This document shows positions 3,238 to 19,439 of a stretch of DNA of 19,439 nt, piece by piece. This DNA comes from a virus (Duplodnaviria; Heunggongvirae; Uroviricota; Caudoviricetes), in the IMG/VR virus record IMGVR_UViG_2925903241_000001, positions 1-19,439 of that record. One strand, written 5' to 3'. Under the pieces are notes generated by a model. The model had not been told where the DNA came from. It saw nothing but the letters and a program-made list of their open reading frames with translations, and searched no databases. The stretch's first letter is position 1; every line of letters starts with the position of its first letter. A program made the position numbers and the translations under genes.

Positions 3238-3509
3238 GTATTCGTATTGAAATTGGCGAACGTTATGTCGTTACCAGTGACAGCTTTCAGTTTATTCTCC
3301 ACGAGAAAAAGAGAGCGGAAAGCGGTAAAAACGCCGGTCAGGAATGGCTGGCGGTGGTTGGTTATTACCCGAAATTAGGCCAGCTCGTTTCCGGCCTGAT
3401 GCATCACGATATTCTGACCGGAAGCGCAAAATCTTTTGCTGATTTAAACGCGCAGGTTGAGCAACTCAGCAAGCGTTGTTCAGAGGCTTTTGGCTCATAT
3501 GGCCGTTAA
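3234..3509 (+). CDS. Hypothetical early protein (P2 orf83 position)
   Basis: 91-aa ORF; its stop at 3507-3509 overlaps the A start codon at 3499. Confidence 0.55.
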   Translation: MSIRIEIGERYVVTSDSFQFILHEKKRAESGKNAGQEWLAVVGYYPKLGQLVSGLMHHDILTGSAKSFADLNAQVEQLSKRCSEAFGSYGR

Positions 3510-4869
3510 AGCCTCCGGGCGTTTTGTCCCTCCGTCAGCATTTACCGCAGGCACCGGTAAGGCGTTTACCGGTGCTTATGCATGGAACGCGCCACGCGAG
3601 GCTGTCGGGCGCGAAAGACCTCTTACACGTGACGAGATGCGTCAGGTGCAAGGTGTTTTATCCACGATTAACCGCCTGCCTTACTTTTTGCGCTCGCTGT
3701 TTACTTCACGCTATGACTACATCCGGCGCAATAAAAGCCCGGTGCACGGGTTTTATTTCCTCACATCTACTTTTCAGCGTCGTTTATGGCCGCGCATTGA
3801 GCGTGTGAATCAGCGCCATGAAATGAACACCGACGCGTCGTTGCTGTTTCTGGCAGAGCGTGACCACTATGCGCGCCTGCCGGGAATGAATGACAAGGAG
3901 CTGAAAAAGTTTGCCGCCCGTATCTCATCGCAGCTTTTCATGATGTATGAGGAACTCTGCGATGCATGGGTTGATGCGCATGGTGAAAAAGAATCGCTGT
4001 TTACGGATGAGGCGCAGGCTCACCTGTATGGTCATGTTGCTGGCGCTGCACGTGCTTTCAATATTTCCCCGCTCTACTGGAAAAAATACCGTAAAGGACA
4101 GATGACCACGAGGCAGGCATATTCTGCCATTGCCCGCCTGTTTAACGATGAGTGGTGGACTCATCAGCTTAAAGGCCAGCGTATGCGCTGGCATGAGGCG
4201 TTACTGATAGCTGTCGGGGAGGTCAATAAAGACCGTTCTCCTTATGCCAGTAAACACGCCATTCGTGATGTGCGTGCGCGCCGCCAGGCAAATCTGGAAT
4301 TTCTTAAATCGTGTGACCTTGAAAACAGGGAAACCGGCGAGCGCATCGACCTTATCAGTAAGGTGATGGGCAGTATTTCTAATCCTGAAATTCGCCGGAT
4401 GGAGCTGATGAACACCATTGCCGGTATTGAGCGTTACGCCGCCGCAGAGGGTGATGTGGGGATGTTTATCACGCTGACCGCGCCGTCAAAGTATCACCCG
4501 ACACGTCAGGTCGGAAAAGGCGAAAGTAAAACCGTTCAGCTTAATCACGGCTGGAACGATGAGGCATTTAATCCAAAGGATGCGCAGCGTTATCTCTGCC
4601 GTATCTGGAGCCTGATGCGCACGGCATTCAAGGATAATGATTTACAGGTCTACGGTTTGCGAGTCGTCGAGCCACACCACGACGGAACGCCGCACTGGCA
4701 TATGATGCTTTTTTGTCATCCACGCCAGCGTAACCAGATTATCGAAATCATGCGTCGCTATGCGCTCAAAGAGGATGGCGACGAAAGAGGTGCGTATTTT
4801 CATGAAAGGAGATCACTCAATAACTTCCATCGAGATCGGGTAATAACATTTGAACAGATCGCTGAATAA
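3499..4869 (+). pseudogene. A: Replication initiation endonuclease gpA (rolling-circle HUH nickase), 3' truncated by IS21-family insertion
   Basis: Likely start at MAVKASGRFVPP (3499), which is the P2 gpA N-terminus as I recall it. Phage-derived coding runs to about 4790 (roughly 431 codons, versus about 761 aa for P2 gpA). The final 25 codons of the ORF (...AYFHERRSLNNFHRDRVITFEQIAE) read into the IS terminal repeat. HUH motif PHWHMM is retained near aa 405-410. Confidence 0.85.
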
Positions 4870-4983
4870 CATCGATGGAGATCACTTTTGACTCATTTTG
4901 TTATTCAGTGATCTCCATCAATGTTATTGGAACTTCACAGGTGTGTTGATCTGTATCTTTTGCCATTCCGGTAAAGGATACCT

Positions 4984-6525
4984 ATGCCAACAGTTCCAAT
5001 TTCTATGAGAAAACTTAAAGAAATTCTTAGGCTTAAATACGGTGTTGGACTCAGCCATCGACAAATTGGTCGTAGTCTTGCAATCTCCCCTTCCGTTGTA
5101 TCCAGATATGCTAATCGGGCGGCTCAACTTGGCATAAAGCAGTGGCCCTTACCTACAGGATGGGATGATACAAAACTAAAACATGCGTTCCTTCAGACCC
5201 AGGTTAAGATGAAGAAGCACTCTCTGCCTGACTGGGCTACAGTACACCGGGAACTGCGTAATAAATGCGTGACGCTGCAGCTACTCTGGGAAGAATACTG
5301 TGAGCGTAATCCAGGCGGTTTTTACAGCTATAACCATTACTGCCGGATGTACCGTGAATGGCTCAAAACCACTTCACCATCAATGCGTCAGGTACATAAA
5401 GCTGGCGAAAAACTTTTCGTTGATTACTGTGGACCTACCGTTGGCGTTACCGACCCTGAGACCGGAGAAATAAGAACTGCTCAGGTCATCGTAGCTGTTC
5501 TCGGGGCATCAAGTTACACATGGGCAGAGGCCACCTGGTCTCAGCAGCTTGAAGACTGGGTGATGAGTCATGTTCGCTGCTTCCAGTGGTTGGGTGGCGT
5601 TCCTGAACTTGTTGTTCCGGACAATCTGAAAAGCGCCACATCCAGGGCATGTAAGTATGATCCTGACGTTAACCCTACCTACCAGCAGATGCTTGAGCAT
5701 TATAATGTCGCAGTTTTGCCTGCGCGGCCACGTAAACCGAAAGATAAAGCCAAAGCTGAAGTTGGCGTTCAGGTTGTTGAACGCTGGATCATGGCCCGAA
5801 TCAGGCATGAGATCTTCTACAGCCTTGCATCGCTTAATCAGCGCATTCGGGAGTTGCTGGAAAGACTGAATAACAAAATAATGCAGAAGTTGGGTTATTC
5901 ACGTGCAGAACTCTTCATCCAGCTTGATAAACCCGCACTGAAGCCTCTTCCTGAAGCCAGTTACAGTTACACCCTGGTGAAGAAAGTCAGAGTTCATGCC
6001 GATTACCACGTGGAAATCGACAAACATTACTACTCGGTTCCATGTTCGCTGTTAGGCCAGCAACTGGAAGCATGGATCTCCGGAGAACTGGTAAGACTCT
6101 TCAATCAGGGGCAGGAGGTTGCTGTGCACCCGCGCAAGCGTACTTATGGCTACAGTACCCGCAACGAGCACATGCCTGAAGCTCATCGACAGCATGCCAC
6201 CTGGACGCCAGAGCGTCTTCTGGAATGGGCGGGGCACATAGGCAGTGAAACTCATAGTTATGTGCTTCATATACTGAACTCTCGTCCACATCCGGAACAA
6301 AGCTATCGCTTCTGCCTTGGACTCCTGAACCTTCATAAAAAATACAGTAAAGCCAGACTTAATGCAGCATGTGCAAGAGCTCTGGAAACAAAGGTATGGC
6401 GTCTGTCAGGTATTAAATCGATCCTGGAAAAAGGTCTGGATAAACAACCTGTTCAGGATCCAAAACCAGATCTGTTATCCACGATGGAACACGAAAACGT
6501 ACGCGGCAGTGAGTATTACCACTGA
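4984..6525 (+). CDS. istA: IS21-family transposase IstA
   Basis: 513-aa ORF with N-terminal HTH-like region (LSHRQIGRSLAISPSVVSRYANRA) and a central integrase-type core, immediately followed by istB. Shine-Dalgarno AGGATA upstream. Confidence 0.9.
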   Translation: MPTVPISMRKLKEILRLKYGVGLSHRQIGRSLAISPSVVSRYANRAAQLGIKQWPLPTGWDDTKLKHAFLQTQVKMKKHSLPDWATVHRELRNKCVTLQLLWEEYCERNPGGFYSYNHYCRMYREWLKTTSPSMRQVHKAGEKLFVDYCGPTVGVTDPETGEIRTAQVIVAVLGASSYTWAEATWSQQLEDWVMSHVRCFQWLGGVPELVVPDNLKSATSRACKYDPDVNPTYQQMLEHYNVAVLPARPRKPKDKAKAEVGVQVVERWIMARIRHEIFYSLASLNQRIRELLERLNNKIMQKLGYSRAELFIQLDKPALKPLPEASYSYTLVKKVRVHADYHVEIDKHYYSVPCSLLGQQLEAWISGELVRLFNQGQEVAVHPRKRTYGYSTRNEHMPEAHRQHATWTPERLLEWAGHIGSETHSYVLHILNSRPHPEQSYRFCLGLLNLHKKYSKARLNAACARALETKVWRLSGIKSILEKGLDKQPVQDPKPDLLSTMEHENVRGSEYYH

Positions 6526-6536
6526 TACGGGATCCA

Positions 6537-7286
6537 ATGATGAATCATCTTTACGAACAACTGACCGCACTTAAACTCACCGGCTTCCGTGATGCGCTTA
6601 AAAAGCAACTTGCTCAACCGGGCACATACCAGGAGCTGGGCTTCGAAGAACGCCTGTCATTACTGACAGCAGAAGAACTAACCTGCCGTGAAAACAGGAA
6701 GGCAGAGCGTCTGATCAAACATGCACGGTTCAGACTTAATGCTGAGTTATCAAAGCTGGATTATCGTAACAATAGAGGGCTGGACAGGGCCCTCATCCGT
6801 TCACTCAGTCAGGGAAACTGGTTAACCCTGAAACAAAATATTTTACTGACCGGGGCCACCGGCAGCGGTAAAACGTTCCTGGCATGTGCACTTGGTCATA
6901 ATGCCTGCCGACAGGGATACAAGGTCTACTATTATCGCCTTAAAGCGCTGATGGAACAGTGCTATCAGGGGCATGCTGATGGAAGATACAGCAAACTTTT
7001 GACCAGGCTGAATAATAGCGATCTGCTGCTTCTGGATGACTGGGGGCTGGAACCTCTCTCATCAGAACAGCGTAGCGACCTGCTGGAAATAGTGGATCTG
7101 ATGTACCAACGAGGCTCAATCATCGTAGTGAGCCAGTTGCCGGTGGAAAACTGGTACAAAATGATCGGAGACTCCACACATGCGGATGCCATCCTAGATC
7201 GACTGGTTCATGGCAGTATCAAGATCGAACTTAAAGGAGAATCAATGCGGAAAATACAATCTCCGTTGACCGAAGGAGATCAGTGA
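6537..7286 (+). CDS. istB: IS21-family ATP-binding helper protein IstB
   Basis: 249-aa ORF with Walker A GATGSGKT and Walker B-like LLLLDDWG, 11 bp downstream of istA. Confidence 0.9.
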   Translation: MMNHLYEQLTALKLTGFRDALKKQLAQPGTYQELGFEERLSLLTAEELTCRENRKAERLIKHARFRLNAELSKLDYRNNRGLDRALIRSLSQGNWLTLKQNILLTGATGSGKTFLACALGHNACRQGYKVYYYRLKALMEQCYQGHADGRYSKLLTRLNNSDLLLLDDWGLEPLSSEQRSDLLEIVDLMYQRGSIIVVSQLPVENWYKMIGDSTHADAILDRLVHGSIKIELKGESMRKIQSPLTEGDQ

Positions 7287-7411
7287 AGGTAATTTAAAAA
7301 CGGTTCTGTGAAAGTGACACGAACCGATCTCCATCGATGTTACTCACCGATCTCCTTCACGGTAATACGCAAAGGCCACGGAACAGGCACACCAACGGGT
7401 AATACAGAGCC

Positions 7412-7437
7412 TTCTCCCAAACCAACGTTTATGAAAA
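7412..7437. other. Orphan gix/hix/pix-like invertase crossover site
   Basis: TTCTCCCAAACC-AA-CGTTTATGAAAA: a 26-bp imperfect palindrome (half-sites match 8/12 in inverse orientation) with central AA dinucleotide and AAACC..GGTTT-type core, resembling hixL and gix sites as I recall them. Lies 56 bp upstream of the invertase start, as in Gin/Hin systems. No partner site found in the window. Confidence 0.6.
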
Positions 7438-7517
7438 TGCAGAGATAACGGGCAAGTGGCATCATCTCCGGTTTTTATTCAGGGGGATGCTCATGCTTAT
7501 TGGCTATGTACGCGTGT

Positions 7518-7525
7518 CAACAAAT
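7518..7525. repeat. IS66 target-site duplication, left copy (CAACAAAT)
   Basis: 8-bp direct repeat immediately flanking the IS66-family left end; identical copy at 9981-9988. Confidence 0.9.
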
Positions 7526-7606
7526 GTAAGCGTCGTCTCAGCACCGTCTGGCAGATCCTGAAATTCCTGAGAGAATAGTGGACACCAAATATGGTGGACG
7601 CAATCC

Positions 7607-8011
7607 ATGAAATCATTAACCGCAGTGCGTAAAAAAAGCCCTAATTATCCCGTTGAGTTCAAAATCAAAATGGTTGAACTCTCGCATCGACCAGAGATCT
7701 CCGTAGCGCAACTCGCTCGTGAGCATGGGATCAACGATAATTTGCTGTTCAAGTGGCGCCAGTACTGGCGCGAAGGAAAACTACGTCCTCCTTCAACAAC
7801 AGAAAACAACGTGCCTGAGCTGCTCCCGATAACACTTGATGCCGAAGATGTTGTCCCTACAACCTCCCCCCGGTCACAACCTGTAGCTGCTGCGACACCT
7901 GAATCACTCAATATCAGCTGTGAAGTGACGTTCCGGCACGGATCACTCCGTCTGAATGGTGCCATCAGCGAAAATATCCTGAACCTGCTGATACGGGAGC
8001 TCAAACGTTGA
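7607..8011 (+). CDS. tnpA: IS66-family accessory protein TnpA (orfA)
   Basis: 134-aa ORF, first gene of the IS66 module; stop overlaps the tnpB start. Confidence 0.8.
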   Translation: MKSLTAVRKKSPNYPVEFKIKMVELSHRPEISVAQLAREHGINDNLLFKWRQYWREGKLRPPSTTENNVPELLPITLDAEDVVPTTSPRSQPVAAATPESLNISCEVTFRHGSLRLNGAISENILNLLIRELKR

Positions 8012-8355
8012 TCCCATTACCATCAGGGACAAAGATCTGGCTGGTCGCTGGCATCACCGATATGAGAAACGGCTTCAACGGCCTGGCGGCAAAGGTGCAG
8101 ACGACGCTGAAAGACGATCCGATGTCAGGTCACGTTTTTATCTTCCGTGGGCGTAATGGCAGTCAGGTAAAGCTCCTCTGGTCTACCGGCGATGGACTGT
8201 GTCTGCTGACCAAACGGCTGGAGCGCGGCCGCTTCGCCTGGCCGTCAGCCCGGGATGGCAAAGTGTTCCTCACACCGGCACAGCTGGCGATGCTGCTGGA
8301 AGGTATCGACTGGCGGCAGCCTAAAAGACTGCTTACGTCCCTGACTATGTTGTAA
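8008..8355 (+). CDS. tnpB: IS66-family accessory protein TnpB (orfB)
   Basis: 115-aa ORF MIPLPSGTKIWLVAGITDMR..., the conserved IS66 orfB-type protein by recall. Confidence 0.85.
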   Translation: MIPLPSGTKIWLVAGITDMRNGFNGLAAKVQTTLKDDPMSGHVFIFRGRNGSQVKLLWSTGDGLCLLTKRLERGRFAWPSARDGKVFLTPAQLAMLLEGIDWRQPKRLLTSLTML

Positions 8356-8403
8356 GCCTCTTTATCCTGGTCGACGCTGAATGAGCCTGGTAATATACCC
8401 GGT

Positions 8404-9939
8404 ATGAGCAGCTCACTTCCTGACGATATCAATGCACTGAAACGTCTCCTTGCCGAACAGGAGGCGCTGAACCGTGCCCTGCAGGAAAAGCTGAACGAGC
8501 GTGAACGCGAAATAGACCATCTGCAGGCACAGCTGGATAAGCTGCGCCGGATGAACTTCGGCAGCCGCTCGGAAAAAGTCTCCCGTCGTATCGCACAGAT
8601 GGAAGCTGACCTGAAGGCACTTCAGAAAGAAAGTGATACCCTTACCGGTCGGGTTGACGACCCGGCCGTGCAGCGCCCGCTGCGTCAAACCCGCACCCGC
8701 AAACCGTTCCCCGAATCACTCCCCCGCGATGAAAAACGGCTGCTGCCGGCAGCGTCATGCTGCCCGGAATGTGGAGGCTCGCTGAGCTATCTGGGTGAGG
8801 ATGCCGCCGAACAGCTGGAGCTGATGCGCAGCGCCTTCCGGGTTATCCGGACTGTACGTGAAAAGCATGCCTGTACTCAGTGCGATGCCATCGTGCAGGC
8901 CCCCGCGCCTTCACGGCCCATCGAGCGGGGTATCGCAGGACCGGGGCTGCTGGCCCGCGTGCTGATCTCAAAGTATGCAGAGCACACCCCGCTGTACCGC
9001 CAGTCTGAAATGTACGGCCGCCAGGGCGTGGAGCTGAGTCGTTCACTGCTGTCGGGCTGGGTGGATGCATGCTGCCGGCTACTGTCACCGCTGGAAGAAG
9101 CGCTTCAGGACTATGTGCTGACTGACGGTAAGCTCCATGCTGATGACACGCCTGTCCCGGTGCTGTTGCCAGGCAATAAGAAAACGAAGACCGGGCGGTT
9201 ATGGACCTACGTTCGTGACGACCGTAACGCCGGGTCAACGCTGGCGCCGGCGGTGTGGTTCGCTTACAGCCCGGACAGAAAAGGCATCCATCCGCAGACC
9301 CATCTTGCGGGGTTCAGTGGTGTACTGCAGGCGGATGCATACGCCGGGTTCAACGAGCTGTACCGGGATGGCCGGATAACGGAAGCCGCCTGTTGGGCTC
9401 ACGCCCGCCGTAAAATCCACGATGTGCACGTTCGCACCCCGTCAGCCCTGACGGAGGAAGCGCTGAAACGGATCGGCGAACTGTACGCCATCGAGGCAGA
9501 GATAAGGGGAATGACGGCGGAGCAGCGCCTTGCCGAACGTCAGTTGAAAACGAAACCGCTGCTGAAATCCCTGGAAAGCTGGCTGCGTGAAAAGATGAAA
9601 ACCCTGTCGCGACACTCAGAACTGGCGAAAGCGTTCGCATACGCCCTGAACCAGTGGCCGGCGCTGACGTACTATGCAGATGATGGCTGGGCTGAGGCGG
9701 ACAATAACATCGCTGAAAATGCGTTGCGGATGGTCAGTCTGGGCCGCAAAAACTACCTGTTCTTCGGTTCGGATCATGGAGGAGAGCGGGGAGCGCTGCT
9801 GTACAGCCTGATCGGGACGTGCAAACTGAACGGAGTGGAGCCAGAAAGCTACCTCCGCTATGTCCTTGACGTCATAGCCGACTGGCCGATAAACCGGGTC
9901 GGCGAACTGCTCCCCCTGGCGCGTAGCACTGCCGACTGA
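8404..9939 (+). CDS. tnpC: IS66-family transposase TnpC
   Basis: 511-aa ORF with N-terminal leucine-zipper/coiled-coil, a CxxC...CxxC zinc-finger region (CPECGG ... CTQCD) and a C-terminal DDE-type region, typical of IS66 transposases. Confidence 0.9.
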
Positions 9940-9980
9940 ATAACACATCCCCGTCAATACGGTTCTTGCTGCACGCTTAC

Positions 9981-9988
9981 CAACAAAT
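9981..9988. repeat. IS66 target-site duplication, right copy (CAACAAAT)
   Basis: Identical to 7518-7525; immediately follows the IS66 right terminus. Confidence 0.9.
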
Positions 9989-10608
9989 GACCAGAACACG
10001 GAATTGCAGCGTAACGCGCTGGAGTGCGCAGGATGTGAGCTGATTTTTGAGGATAAAATCAGCGGCACGAAGTCCGACAGGCCGGGGCTGAAAAAACTGC
10101 TCAGAACATTATCGGAAGGTGACACTCTGGTAGTCTGGAAGCTGGACCGGCTGGGGCGTAGTATGCGGCATCTGGTCATTCTGGTTGAGGAGCTGCGCGA
10201 ACGCGGCATTAATTTTCGCAGCCTGACGGATGCCATTGATACCAGCACGCCGATGGGGCGTTTTTTCTTTCATGTGATGGGTGCCCTGGCTGAAATGGAG
10301 CGAGAACTCATTGTCGAGCGGACACGCGCCGGACTGGAGGCGGCCAGAGCCAAAGGTCGTATTGGTGGCAGACGTCCGAAACTCACCGCGAGTGAGTGGG
10401 AGCAGGCCGGGCGGTTGCTGGCTGCAGGGGAATCACGTCAACGCGTGGCACTGATTTTTGATATTGGCCTGTCCACGCTCTATAAAAAATTCCCCGCCTC
10501 AGTGACAAAAAATAAATTGTGTCATCCCTTAGCCAACCGGGACAAATAGCCTGACATCTCCGGCACAACTAAAAATATCACTCACCCATTAACCACGGAG
10601 TTAAACGG

Positions 10609-11799
10609 ATGAGTGACTATCATCACGGCGTGCAGGTGCTGGAGATTAACGACGGCACCCGCGTCATTTCCACCGTATCCACTGCCATTGTCGGCATGGT
10701 CTGCACGGCCAGCGATGCGGATGCGGAAACCTTCCCCCTCAATAAACCGGTGCTGATTACCAATGTGCAGAGCGCAATTGCAAAGGCTGGTAAAAAAGGC
10801 ACGCTGGCGGCGTCGTTACAGGCCATCGCCGACCAGTCAAAACCGGTCACCGTTGTCGTGCGTGTGGAAGACGGCACCGGTGACGACGAGGAAACGAAAC
10901 TCGCGCAGACCGTTTCCAATATCATCGGCACCACCGACGAAAACGGTCAGTACACCGGACTGAAAGCCCTGCTGGCGGCGGAGTCGGTAACCGGTGTTAA
11001 GCCGCGCATTCTCGGTGTGCCGGGACTGGACACCAAAGAGGTTGCCGTCGCACTGGCATCAGTCTGTCAGAAGCTGCGCGCTTTCGGGTATATCAGCGCA
11101 TGGGGCTGTAAAACCATTTCCGAGGTGAAAGCCTACCGCCAGAATTTCAGCCAGCGTGAGCTGATGGTCATCTGGCCGGATTTCCTCGCATGGGATACGG
11201 TCACCAGTACCACCGCCACCGCGTATGCCACCGCCCGTGCGCTGGGTCTGCGCGCTAAAATCGACCAGGAGCAGGGCTGGCATAAAACACTGTCCAACGT
11301 TGGGGTGAACGGTGTTACCGGCATCAGCGCATCTGTATTCTGGGATTTGCAGGAGTCCGGCACCGATGCTGACCTGCTGAATGAGTCAGGCGTCACAACG
11401 CTGATTCGCCGTGACGGTTTCCGCTTCTGGGGTAACCGTACCTGCTCTGATGACCCGCTGTTCCTCTTTGAAAACTACACCCGCACCGCGCAGGTGCTGG
11501 CCGACACGATGGCTGAGGCGCACATGTGGGCGGTGGACAAGCCCATCACCGCAACGCTGATTCGCGACATCGTTGATGGCATCAATGCCAAATTCCGAGA
11601 GCTGAAAACAAACGGCTATATCGTGGATGGCACATGCTGGTTCAGCGAAGAATCCAACGATGCGGAAACCCTCAAGGCCGGAAAACTGTATATCGACTAC
11701 GACTATACACCGGTGCCTCCTCTCGAAAACCTGACCCTGCGCCAGCGTATTACCGATAAATACCTGGCAAATCTGGTCACCTCGGTTAACAGCAATTAA
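10609..11799 (+). CDS. FI: Contractile tail sheath protein gpFI
   Basis: 396-aa ORF beginning MSDYHHGVQVLEINDGTRVISTVSTAIVGMV..., matching P2 FI in length and in sequence as far as I can recall. GGAG Shine-Dalgarno upstream. Confidence 0.93.
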   Translation: MSDYHHGVQVLEINDGTRVISTVSTAIVGMVCTASDADAETFPLNKPVLITNVQSAIAKAGKKGTLAASLQAIADQSKPVTVVVRVEDGTGDDEETKLAQTVSNIIGTTDENGQYTGLKALLAAESVTGVKPRILGVPGLDTKEVAVALASVCQKLRAFGYISAWGCKTISEVKAYRQNFSQRELMVIWPDFLAWDTVTSTTATAYATARALGLRAKIDQEQGWHKTLSNVGVNGVTGISASVFWDLQESGTDADLLNESGVTTLIRRDGFRFWGNRTCSDDPLFLFENYTRTAQVLADTMAEAHMWAVDKPITATLIRDIVDGINAKFRELKTNGYIVDGTCWFSEESNDAETLKAGKLYIDYDYTPVPPLENLTLRQRITDKYLANLVTSVNSN

Positions 11800-17283: not shown

Positions 17284-17805
17284 ATGTCAAAGCCAAAATA
17301 CCCTTTTGAAAAGCGCCTTGAAGTCGTGAATCACTACTTCACAACTGATGATGGTTACAGGATCATCTCGGCACGTTTTGGTGTCCCCCGAACCCAGGTC
17401 AGGACATGGGTTGCCCTCTATGAAAAACATGGAGAAAAAGGTTTAATTCCCAAACCTAAAGGCGTTAGTGCTGATCCAGAGTTGCGTATTAAGGTCGTGA
17501 AAGCTGTGATCGAGCAGCACATGTCCCTTAATCAGGCTGCTGCTCACTTTATGCTTGCTGGTAGTGGTTCTGTAGCCAGGTGGCTGAAGGTCTATGAAGA
17601 GCGCGGAGAAGCTGGTTTACGCGCGCTCAAGATTGGCACCAAAAGAAACATTGCAATATCAGTTGATCCAGAAAAAGCGGCATCAGCATTGGAGCTGTCA
17701 AAAGACCGACGCATTGAGGATCTTGAAAGGCAAGTTCGATTTCTTGAAACGCGGCTTATGTATCTAAAAAAGCTGAAAGCCTTAGCTCATCCCACGAAAA
17801 AGTGA
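17284..17805 (+). CDS. insJ: IS150 transposase OrfA (InsJ)
   Basis: 173-aa ORF with N-terminal HTH; contains the A AAA AAG frameshift heptamer at 17766-17772 near its 3' end. Confidence 0.92.
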   Translation: MSKPKYPFEKRLEVVNHYFTTDDGYRIISARFGVPRTQVRTWVALYEKHGEKGLIPKPKGVSADPELRIKVVKAVIEQHMSLNQAAAHFMLAGSGSVARWLKVYEERGEAGLRALKIGTKRNIAISVDPEKAASALELSKDRRIEDLERQVRFLETRLMYLKKLKALAHPTKK

Positions 17806-18653
17806 AAGTACTCAACGAGCTAAGGCAGTTTTATCCTCTTGATGAGCTTCTCAGGGCTGCGGAGATACCGCGCAGTACGTTTTATTATCATCTAAAGGCT
17901 CTCAGCAAGCCTGACAAGTATGCGGACGTTAAAAAGCGTATTAGTGAGATTTATCACGAGAATAGAGGCCGATACGGATACCGTAGGGTAACGCTGTCTC
18001 TTCATCGAGAAGGGAAACAGATTAACCATAAAGCTGTTCAGCGCCTGATGGGAACCCTCTCACTTAAAGCAGCGATTAAGGTCAAGCGATACCGCTCTTA
18101 CAGAGGAGAGGTAGGGCAAACCGCCCCTAATGTTCTCCAAAGAGATTTCAAGGCTACGCGGCCAAACGAGAAGTGGGTTACCGATGTTACTGAATTTGCA
18201 GTCAATGGGCGCAAGCTGTATTTGTCTCCAGTAATAGATCTCTTCAACAACGAAGTTATTTCTTACAGCCTTTCGGAAAGACCAGTGATGAACATGGTTG
18301 AGAATATGCTCGATCAGGCATTCAAAAAGCTTAATCCTCACGAGCATCCTGTTCTGCACTCTGACCAGGGATGGCAGTATCGTATGAGAAGATATCAAAA
18401 TATCCTTAAAGAACATGGTATTAAACAAAGCATGTCCAGAAAAGGCAATTGTCTGGATAATGCTGTGGTGGAGTGTTTCTTTGGAACCTTAAAGTCGGAG
18501 TGTTTTTATCTTGATGAGTTCAGTAATATAAGCGAACTGAAGGATGCTGTTACGGAATATATTGAATACTACAACAGCAGAAGAATTAGCCTGAAATTAA
18601 AAGGTCTGACTCCAATTGAATATCGGAATCAGACCTATATGCCTCGTGTTTAA
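17802..18653 (+). CDS. insK: IS150 transposase OrfB (InsK), DDE catalytic domain; expressed mainly as an InsJK fusion by -1 frameshift
   Basis: 283-aa ORF in the -1 frame relative to insJ, with an IS3-family integrase-core DDE region (...WVTDVTEF...HSDQGWQY...). Confidence 0.92.
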
Positions 18654-18797: not shown

Positions 18798-19439
18798 ATG
18801 GAAAAAGTTATAATTGAGCTTGATAATCGTTGGGAGTTAGCTGATTTCGCGGTCTTAACGAAAGAGTATTTGCAGCTATATGGTTTTTTTTATGGCCTAA
18901 AAGGAGGATCAAGAGGATATTCAACAATGCCTTGGGAGGGTGGGCACAGTGTGGTGAACTTTTTTAGAGGGGCTTACAGTGCGACTCCACCAGATTTACG
19001 TCCTGTAGTGAAAAAAATTCAGTATGCCTCTCCTGGCTTTATTGAATTGTCTGCTCTTATTGATATCTCTTGGCAGATTGCTGAGTTAGTTACTGCTGTT
19101 GGTGGAAGTATTCTGGCTGCCAACAAAGTTTACGATCAGGTGATGCGTACATATCGACAAAGAGAATGGGCAAAGTTGAAATCAGAGAAGCTGCGTATAC
19201 AGAATCAAATTAAAGAGATTGAACTTGTTTCTGACGCAGTTAAATCACTTGAATCTGTGATGGCACTTAGTGAAGAACAACGTAAAAACTTGGTTCAACT
19301 ATCGGGGGCAGATGAACTGGTTCAGTTAAAGATACTTTTGGCTGTTTACCGACGGTTATCTCCTCTTGTTGAGTTGCAAAACAGCGGGAAAGCTAATTTT
19401 TCTGCTGGGAAAAATAAAAATTTAAAAGCGTCCGATTAA
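18798..19439 (+). CDS. Hypothetical protein (unassigned), complete, in AT-rich DNA
   Basis: 213-aa ORF with ATG at 18798, GGTGG Shine-Dalgarno-like sequence upstream and TAA at 19437-19439. Base composition is clearly AT-richer than the phage block. C-terminal half is predicted helical/coiled-coil (KLKSEKLRIQNQIKEIELVSDAVKSLESVMALSEEQRKNL). No family recognised by eye. Confidence 0.55.
   Translation: MEKVIIELDNRWELADFAVLTKEYLQLYGFFYGLKGGSRGYSTMPWEGGHSVVNFFRGAYSATPPDLRPVVKKIQYASPGFIELSALIDISWQIAELVTAVGGSILAANKVYDQVMRTYRQREWAKLKSEKLRIQNQIKEIELVSDAVKSLESVMALSEEQRKNLVQLSGADELVQLKILLAVYRRLSPLVELQNSGKANFSAGKNKNLKASD

Follow-up and report, generated by a model that had tools for sequence, protein, structure and literature searches.

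The closest described relatives of the locus reported here are invertible segments of the Din family, in which a serine invertase acts on two inverted crossover sites. Inversion of the P segment of e14 goes back to Plasterk and van de Putte (1985), as cited in PMC3241671 and PMC4272514, and the crossover sites of the family are tabulated in Table 3 of PMC3241671. In P2-like prophages of EPEC, inversion of tail-fibre loci was demonstrated by sequencing and PCR (PMC4272514). The Hin mechanism requires a recombinational enhancer bound by Fis, according to PMC3798978, and the P1 record annotates the recombinational enhancer of Cin at positions +19 to +90 of cin.

The window analysed here, a stretch of 19,439 nt (IMG/VR record IMGVR_UViG_2925903241_000001), was 100% identical to the cpxP-fieF locus of Escherichia coli SCEC020007 and represents a decayed P2-like prophage. 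A previous sequence-only reading had noted in it a 26-bp imperfect palindrome with a central AA and had taken it for the orphaned crossover site of a lost invertible tail-fibre segment. Comparison with sister genomes and viral contigs led us to conclude that the site is almost certainly the invertase-proximal pixR of a Pin-type, Mu-G-like segment in the P2-like cpxP-fieF prophage, orphaned by a deletion anchored at the insertion sequence ISEc12.

Identity of the 26-bp site

The palindrome was present as described, on the plus strand at positions 7412–7437, and reads TTCTCCCAAACCAACGTTTATGAAAA, with an inner half-site TTCTCCCAAACC at 7412–7423, the central dinucleotide AA at 7424–7425 and an outer half-site CGTTTATGAAAA at 7426–7437. 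Its dyad symmetry extends to 8 of 12 positions when TTCTCCCAAACC is compared with the reverse complement of the right half, TTTTCATAAACG. Din-family sites are built in this way, from two 12-bp half-sites of imperfect symmetry with a 2-bp core between them. All 26 positions were identical to the pixR sequence in Table 3 of PMC3241671, and the identical 26-mer precedes pinE by 54 nt in e14 of E. coli K-12 MG1655. Identity to the other known sites was 21/26 for pixL, 20/26 for hixL, 19/26 for both cixL and cixR, 17/26 for gix and 16/26 for hixR, and the printed dix consensus, with its half-sites restored to 12 nt, left one mismatch among its 15 specified positions. When the window was shuffled 200 times with its dinucleotide composition preserved, no match to the site appeared at three or fewer mismatches. 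Because the sequence, the position and the adjacent enzyme all fit, the 26-bp site is a Din-family crossover site, specifically the pixR allele.

The site is separated from the ATG of the invertase gene at 7493 by a spacer of 55 nt (7438–7492). The sequence-only reading had placed it 56 bp upstream of the invertase; the adjacent upstream position stands, and the spacing differs by one through a difference in counting. It had also likened the layout to that of the Gin, Cin, Pin and Hin systems, which holds for Gin and Pin, each with a spacing of 54 nt, but neither for Cin, whose gene overlaps cixL at its 3′ end, nor for Hin, whose gene lies within the segment. A simple scan of positions 7300–7620 for sigma-70 promoters and terminators returned no match.

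Within the 19.4-kb window, neither a partner nor a second copy of the site was found with the site itself, the partner sequence of relatives or the inner half-site alone as queries. An inverted partner with the same core dinucleotide, absent from the window, is present in strain M217, strain 163, strain 600055 and phage pro483. The loose core motif AAACCNNNGTTT had 9 matches in the window at no more than one mismatch, a number not significantly above chance. When up to three mismatches to the dix consensus were allowed, two weak candidates came up beside the true site, at 2089–2114 and 5188–5213, both of which were treated as chance. The latter, TTCCTTCAGACCCAGGTTAAGATGAA, lies on the plus strand in istA of ISEc12 and has two mismatches to the loose Din consensus; it is probably a chance match, its core CA being incompatible with the AA of the pixR site.

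The interrupted invertase gene

The gene downstream of the site is split in two by ISEc22, an IS66-family element with tnpA, tnpB and tnpC that occupies positions 7526–9980 (plus strand) as a simple insertion, flanked by an 8-bp target duplication, CAACAAAT, at 7518–7525 and 9981–9988. The 5′ fragment (7493–7525, plus strand) holds codons 1–11 (MLIGYVRVSTN), including the codon of the catalytic Ser9, and its reading frame ends after 22 codons. The 3′ fragment (9989–10549, plus strand) holds codons 12–197 and the stop codon. When ISEc22 and one copy of the duplication were removed in silico, the two fragments joined into a 197-aa Pin-type serine invertase with Resolvase (3e-52) and HTH_7 (5e-13) Pfam domains. 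The repaired product shared 96% identity with the pro483 invertase, 88% with PinE, 80% with Cin and 78% with Gin, and it was 100% identical to the product of an intact gene in a viral contig (L061). The sequence-only reading had made no mention of this disruption.

ISEc22 thus cuts off the Ser9 codon, and the 3′ open reading frame lacks it. RefSeq/PGAP annotates this frame (9947–10549, plus strand) as an intact 200-aa ‘recombinase family protein’, WP_062914736.1, which starts at an ATC inside the end of ISEc22; with an N-terminus derived from the insertion sequence and no catalytic Ser9, it should rather be annotated as a pseudogene. The transposase of ISEc22 (8404–9939, plus strand), in turn, was flagged as frameshifted by PGAP, whereas the program-made list of open reading frames holds an uninterrupted 511-aa frame there.

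The insertion also falls within the region homologous to the Cin enhancer. Coding positions +19 to +33, the first 15 nt of that region, lie at 7511–7525 (plus strand), and the remainder (+34 to +90) lies at 9989–10045, 2.46 kb away across ISEc22. An ungapped alignment to cin over the region had 58 of 72 positions identical, with the insertion point between +33 and +34. By this homology, the stretch from +19 to +90 of the invertase gene is a putative recombinational enhancer that ISEc22 would have split.

ISEc22 is present in M217, a relative without the deletion described below. Its insertion therefore came earlier than the deletion, and the switch was already dead before the deletion took place. 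In relatives with the identical invertase remnant, each genome had one megablast-level match to the invertase gene, at a sensitivity that does not reach PinQ/PinR-like distances. This single copy in close relatives argues against a closely related Pin acting in trans.

The remaining prophage

The prophage in the window starts with the integrase gene, C, cox, B and small early genes. These are followed by a 5′ fragment of the P2-type replication gene A (3499–4790, plus strand), which is cut off by ISEc12 and annotated by PGAP as ‘replication endonuclease, missing C-terminus’. Its last 5 bp, AGAGG at 4786–4790, are the surviving left target-site duplication of ISEc12. ISEc12 itself, a 2,581-bp IS21-family element with istA and istB, occupies 4791–7371 (plus strand), as delimited by its annotation, its terminal inverted repeats and the duplication seen in M217.

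The right end of ISEc12 at 7371 leaves exactly 40 bp (7372–7411) before the site, which agrees to the base with the distance to the IS21 end given previously. These 40 bp are a minus-strand stub of an inverted, alternative tail-fibre C-terminal cassette, Hv(−), as judged by its translation and by relatives. The reverse strand of 7372–7435 translates to FINVGLGEGSVLPVGVPVPWP, a tail-fibre sequence that reads from the site away from the invertase; the stub and the inner half-site together encode ...GLGE GSVLPVGVPVPWP, so that 13 codons of one cassette remain in the window. The stub matches the start of a 171-aa tail-collar open reading frame of relatives and the H(−) junction generated in silico. 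PGAP also calls a partial ‘phage tail protein’ at this position.

Downstream of the invertase remnant lies the tail sheath gene FI (10609–11799, plus strand), followed by FII, E, T, U, D and ogr and then by IS150. With FI as its neighbour, the locus corresponds to the G-FI interval of a P2-like genome. IS150 (17284–18653) adjoins ogr, and a 213-aa open reading frame with no Pfam match (18798–19439) stands between it and fieF.

Intact relatives and the ancestral segment

The locus with the invertase gene repaired (786 bp) shared 100% identity with strain 600055 and 95% with phage pro483. In both, the order of features is H, G, an oppositely oriented G′ with an Hv′ open reading frame, the site, the invertase gene and FI, and G and G′ have opposite orientations in the intact relatives. 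The inverted partner lies inside H in 600055 and pro483 and reads TTCTCGCATACCTTGGTTTGGGAGAA, which is composed of TTCTCGCATACC, TT and GGTTTGGGAGAA; across the inner half-site and the core, it complements the window site exactly. In M217, the inverted partner is likewise inside the tail-fibre gene H, 1,951 bp from the site, and the two sites flank the Hv-G and G′-Hv′ cassettes. The expectation that intact relatives would have two such sites around tail-fibre cassettes was thus borne out in 600055, pro483 and M217, where the sites are inverted relative to each other and enclose the C-terminal cassettes and their chaperone genes immediately upstream of the same invertase and FI.

Inversion between the two cores, carried out in silico, leaves H in frame and gives products of 431 aa for H(+) and 433 aa for H(−). 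The two share their first 280 residues and diverge directly after GLGE. The alternative C-terminus, which carries a tail-collar domain, begins with GSVLPVGVPVPWP, the same residues as the stub in the window. A constant N-terminus followed by two C-terminal cassettes, each with a chaperone gene, is found only in the ancestral form of the locus. These features support an ancestor that carried a Pin-type, Mu-G-like invertible tail-fibre segment, with a putatively different host range in each orientation. The sequence-only reading had located such a switch between the tail-fibre genes and FI; the segment architecture was as proposed, and its placement needs correction in that the partner lies inside H, where its constant part meets the variable one.

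M217 further carries, at 3360–5843 of its sequence and within the DNA deleted from the window, a gene for an 827-aa ResIII/DEAD-type helicase between the portal gene and gene A. In P2, this position is occupied by the accessory or defence genes old and tin.

Natural inversion at the site pair

We then scanned viral contigs for exact matches to the 26-mer and obtained at least 120 contigs. Among the 114 with enough downstream sequence, 111 had an invertase start (MLIGY) 53–55 nt downstream of the site, and of the 75 whose upstream sequence reached 3.5 kb or more, 70 had an inverted partner at a distance of 1.46–4.09 kb. Five contigs with long upstream flanks had no partner at the threshold used; these may hold additional orphan sites, or partners that have diverged further. 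The partner was an exact inverted copy of the site in five viral loci (L027, L040, L104, L105 and L108), and another (L030) had the exact site twice, inverted and with both copies identical. The distances between site and invertase in the viral loci (L011–L130) fell mainly into a class of 54 nt, as in e14 (n = 72), and a class of 55 nt, as in the window (n = 38), which may mark e14-type and P2-type lineages of the module.

Contig L061, which corresponds directly to the ancestor of the window and encodes the intact invertase identical to the repaired one, was informative on the activity of the pair. The 1,956 bp between its site centres were 99.9% identical to M217 but reversed, with both breakpoints at the site centres, and its flanks were collinear with M217 at 99.9–100% identity. 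Reciprocal cassette arrangements were also common among the other viral contigs. Since a contig with the identical intact invertase carries the segment flipped at the site centres, this comparison of assemblies shows that the P2-type site pair recombines in nature. Inversion at the site centres is therefore a property of the intact pair; the orphan copy in the window cannot invert without a partner.

Deletions anchored at ISEc12

M217 contains the same prophage in complete form, with ISEc12 as a simple insertion in gene A, AGAGG on both sides and the two halves of A flanking the element. The window aligned to M217 with no mismatch over 7,371 and 12,068 bp. What it lacks of M217 amounts to exactly 18,552 bp, starting at the right end of ISEc12, with only the left AGAGG retained. 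The earlier statement that the partner and the segment are gone is accordingly accounted for by a deletion anchored at the IS21-family element. Lost with it are nearly all of the ~2-kb segment and ~16.6 kb of other prophage DNA, comprising part of gene A, the accessory helicase gene and head, lysis and baseplate genes.

Two further genomes extend this pair to a series. To the right of ISEc12, nothing is missing in M217, which keeps both crossover sites; 11,911 bp are missing in strain 163, which also keeps both; 17,185 bp are missing in AR_0162 and 18,552 bp in the window, each of which keeps the right site only. All four states of the prophage occupy the same chromosomal site and share the same ISEc22 and IS150 insertions, and their remaining DNA is identical. 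Among the 28 genomes that matched at least 80% of the window, some had extra DNA at the ISEc12 junction; the window junction was common to 18 genomes.

Two observations point to deletion from an M217-like state as the direction of the change, rather than insertion: intact P2-like phages are collinear with that state, and one half of the target duplication survives. We also considered whether the extra 6.6 kb of strain 163 could be an insertion; this was rejected, since intact P2-like prophages have this DNA in collinear order and, in M217, the full series is seen along with the duplication. A fixed terminus of the insertion sequence, loss of the flank and of the duplication on one side only and an ancestor with a simple insertion were all found. 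IS-mediated adjacent deletion usually leaves just such a pattern, with one IS terminus fixed and the distal end-points varied, and we favour intramolecular transposition of ISEc12 as its probable route. The series as a whole preserves, in natural genomes, successive stages in the erosion of a prophage by an IS21-family element.

Discussion

The site itself, the architecture of its relatives, the end-points of the deletion and the flipped isomer are all observed directly, and the following course of events would connect them. In the ancestor, the serine invertase would have bound two inverted 26-bp sites, one inside H and the other 55 nt upstream of the invertase gene, and strand exchange at the central AA/TT would have flipped the 1,951-bp segment. 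The constant part of H, 280 residues long, would thereby have been fused in frame to either C-terminal cassette, each with its own assembly chaperone. Insertion of ISEc22 after codon 11 would have killed the enzyme, split the putative enhancer and frozen the segment in one orientation, and ISEc12 would have inserted in gene A; both insertions are already found in the least decayed relative. A deletion at the right end of ISEc12 would then have taken 18,552 bp, including the partner and all but 40 bp of the segment. As the window has no partner, no enzyme encoded in cis and a split putative enhancer, its site is probably a non-functional relic.

For the deletion step only, the same product, namely a single insertion sequence with the left duplication kept and the right one lost, would result from RecA-dependent recombination between ISEc12 and a second, directly repeated copy 40 bp from the site, and several ISEc12 copies do exist in these genomes. 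The three end-points on one left junction, however, would demand that a second copy inserted on three separate occasions, always in the same orientation, and recombined each time, and no genome with two ISEc12 copies in this prophage was seen among the records inspected. We therefore regard this route as unlikely, though still a serious competitor to intramolecular transposition, which we continue to prefer for this step.

Much less probable, in our estimate, is that the site is still live. A Din-family invertase encoded elsewhere in the chromosome would then act in trans and pair the site with a distant one resembling pix, gix or hix, giving large chromosomal inversions or deletions. The 26-mer is after all intact and identical to a functional site, and Din invertases can replace one another; Kutsukake and colleagues are said to have dealt with the Fels-2 Fin invertase in this context in 2006. 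Cryptic-prophage Pin recombinases are, moreover, credited with physiological roles in PMC12529663. Against this stand the lack of a partner within 19.4 kb, the CA core of the sole other consensus-like 26-mer (5188–5213, in istA), the split enhancer-homologous region, the one megablast-level match to the invertase gene in closely related genomes, and a junction that 18 genomes share without change, none of the matches being a rearranged variant.

The palindrome might also have arisen by chance, or serve only to regulate the invertase gene as an operator or promoter, without ever having been used for recombination in this phage; its position directly upstream of that gene would fit a regulatory element. 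We give this hardly any weight, given the complete identity to pixR, which no shuffle approached, the inverted partner with identical inner half-site and core inside H of the direct ancestor, the natural flipped isomer broken at the site centres and the lack of a sigma-70-like promoter match in 7300–7620. Equally implausible is that the invertase, rather than the insertion sequence, removed the segment by recombining two sites in direct orientation, for although serine invertases occasionally delete between secondary sites, such an event would have left a hybrid site broken at the core dinucleotide, whereas the window has an unchanged site next to 40 bp of remaining segment DNA, the breakpoint coincides with the ISEc12 terminus to the base and the invertase gene was already disrupted in the undeleted ancestor.

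With an orphaned pixR thus preferred, the practical value of the result is modest. The history of a textbook crossover site can be read base by base from sister genomes, and a clean series of IS-anchored deletions is seen dismantling a prophage in a clinically relevant E. coli lineage. The analysis also corrects an automated annotation, in which a ‘recombinase family protein’ without the catalytic serine passes as intact, and the comparison of assemblies shows activity of the P2-type site pair in nature. As a long shot, the orphan pixR might serve as a latent substrate for the Din invertases of other resident prophages, recombine now and then with distant pix-like sites and so rearrange ST167-type chromosomes on a large scale. 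Separately, the three nested end-points at the one ISEc12 end could be used to gauge the pace at which IS21-family elements erode prophages.

Comparison with described systems

The Pin/pixR system of e14 has an identical 26-bp site and an invertase 88% identical to the repaired one. There, too, an inverted tail-fibre C-terminal cassette adjoins the site, with a chaperone gene after it, and the site precedes the invertase gene by 54 nt, as against 55 nt in the window. The outer half-site of the ancestral partner is TTCTCGCATACC, compared with CTCTCGAAAACC in pixL. The two differ further in that e14 is lambdoid while the host element of the window is a P2-like (Peduovirus) prophage, and in that the window site has no partner and its invertase gene is split.

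The ancestral segment resembles the G segment of Mu in its constant S/H N-terminus, its two opposed C-terminal cassettes with their chaperones and the placement of the invertase gene outside the segment, which in Mu lies 54 nt beyond the right site. It differs in the site (17/26, with a core of GA instead of AA), in the enzyme (Gin being 78% identical) and in length (1.95 kb in the ancestor of the window versus ~3 kb). Cin of P1 belongs to the same family, with a core of AA, 19/26 identity in the site and 80% in the protein, and its enhancer at coding positions +19 to +90 corresponds to the region where ISEc22 inserted in the window; cin, however, is transcribed towards the segment, with cixL overlapping its 3′ end. 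The Hin/hix system of Salmonella likewise shares the site family (hixL 20/26, core AA), but it inverts a promoter rather than tail-fibre coding cassettes, and hin lies within the invertible segment.

The same genomic position, between G and FI, is found in pro483, with the same site pair and an invertase 96% identical, and in the two phase-varying P2-like prophages of EPEC E2348/69, which have the switch at the same G-FI position (PMC4272514). The loci of pro483 and EPEC are intact, whereas the window retains the invertase-proximal site and 40 bp of the segment only. In sum, the locus represents a known system in a known kind of decay, and nothing in it falls outside known biology.
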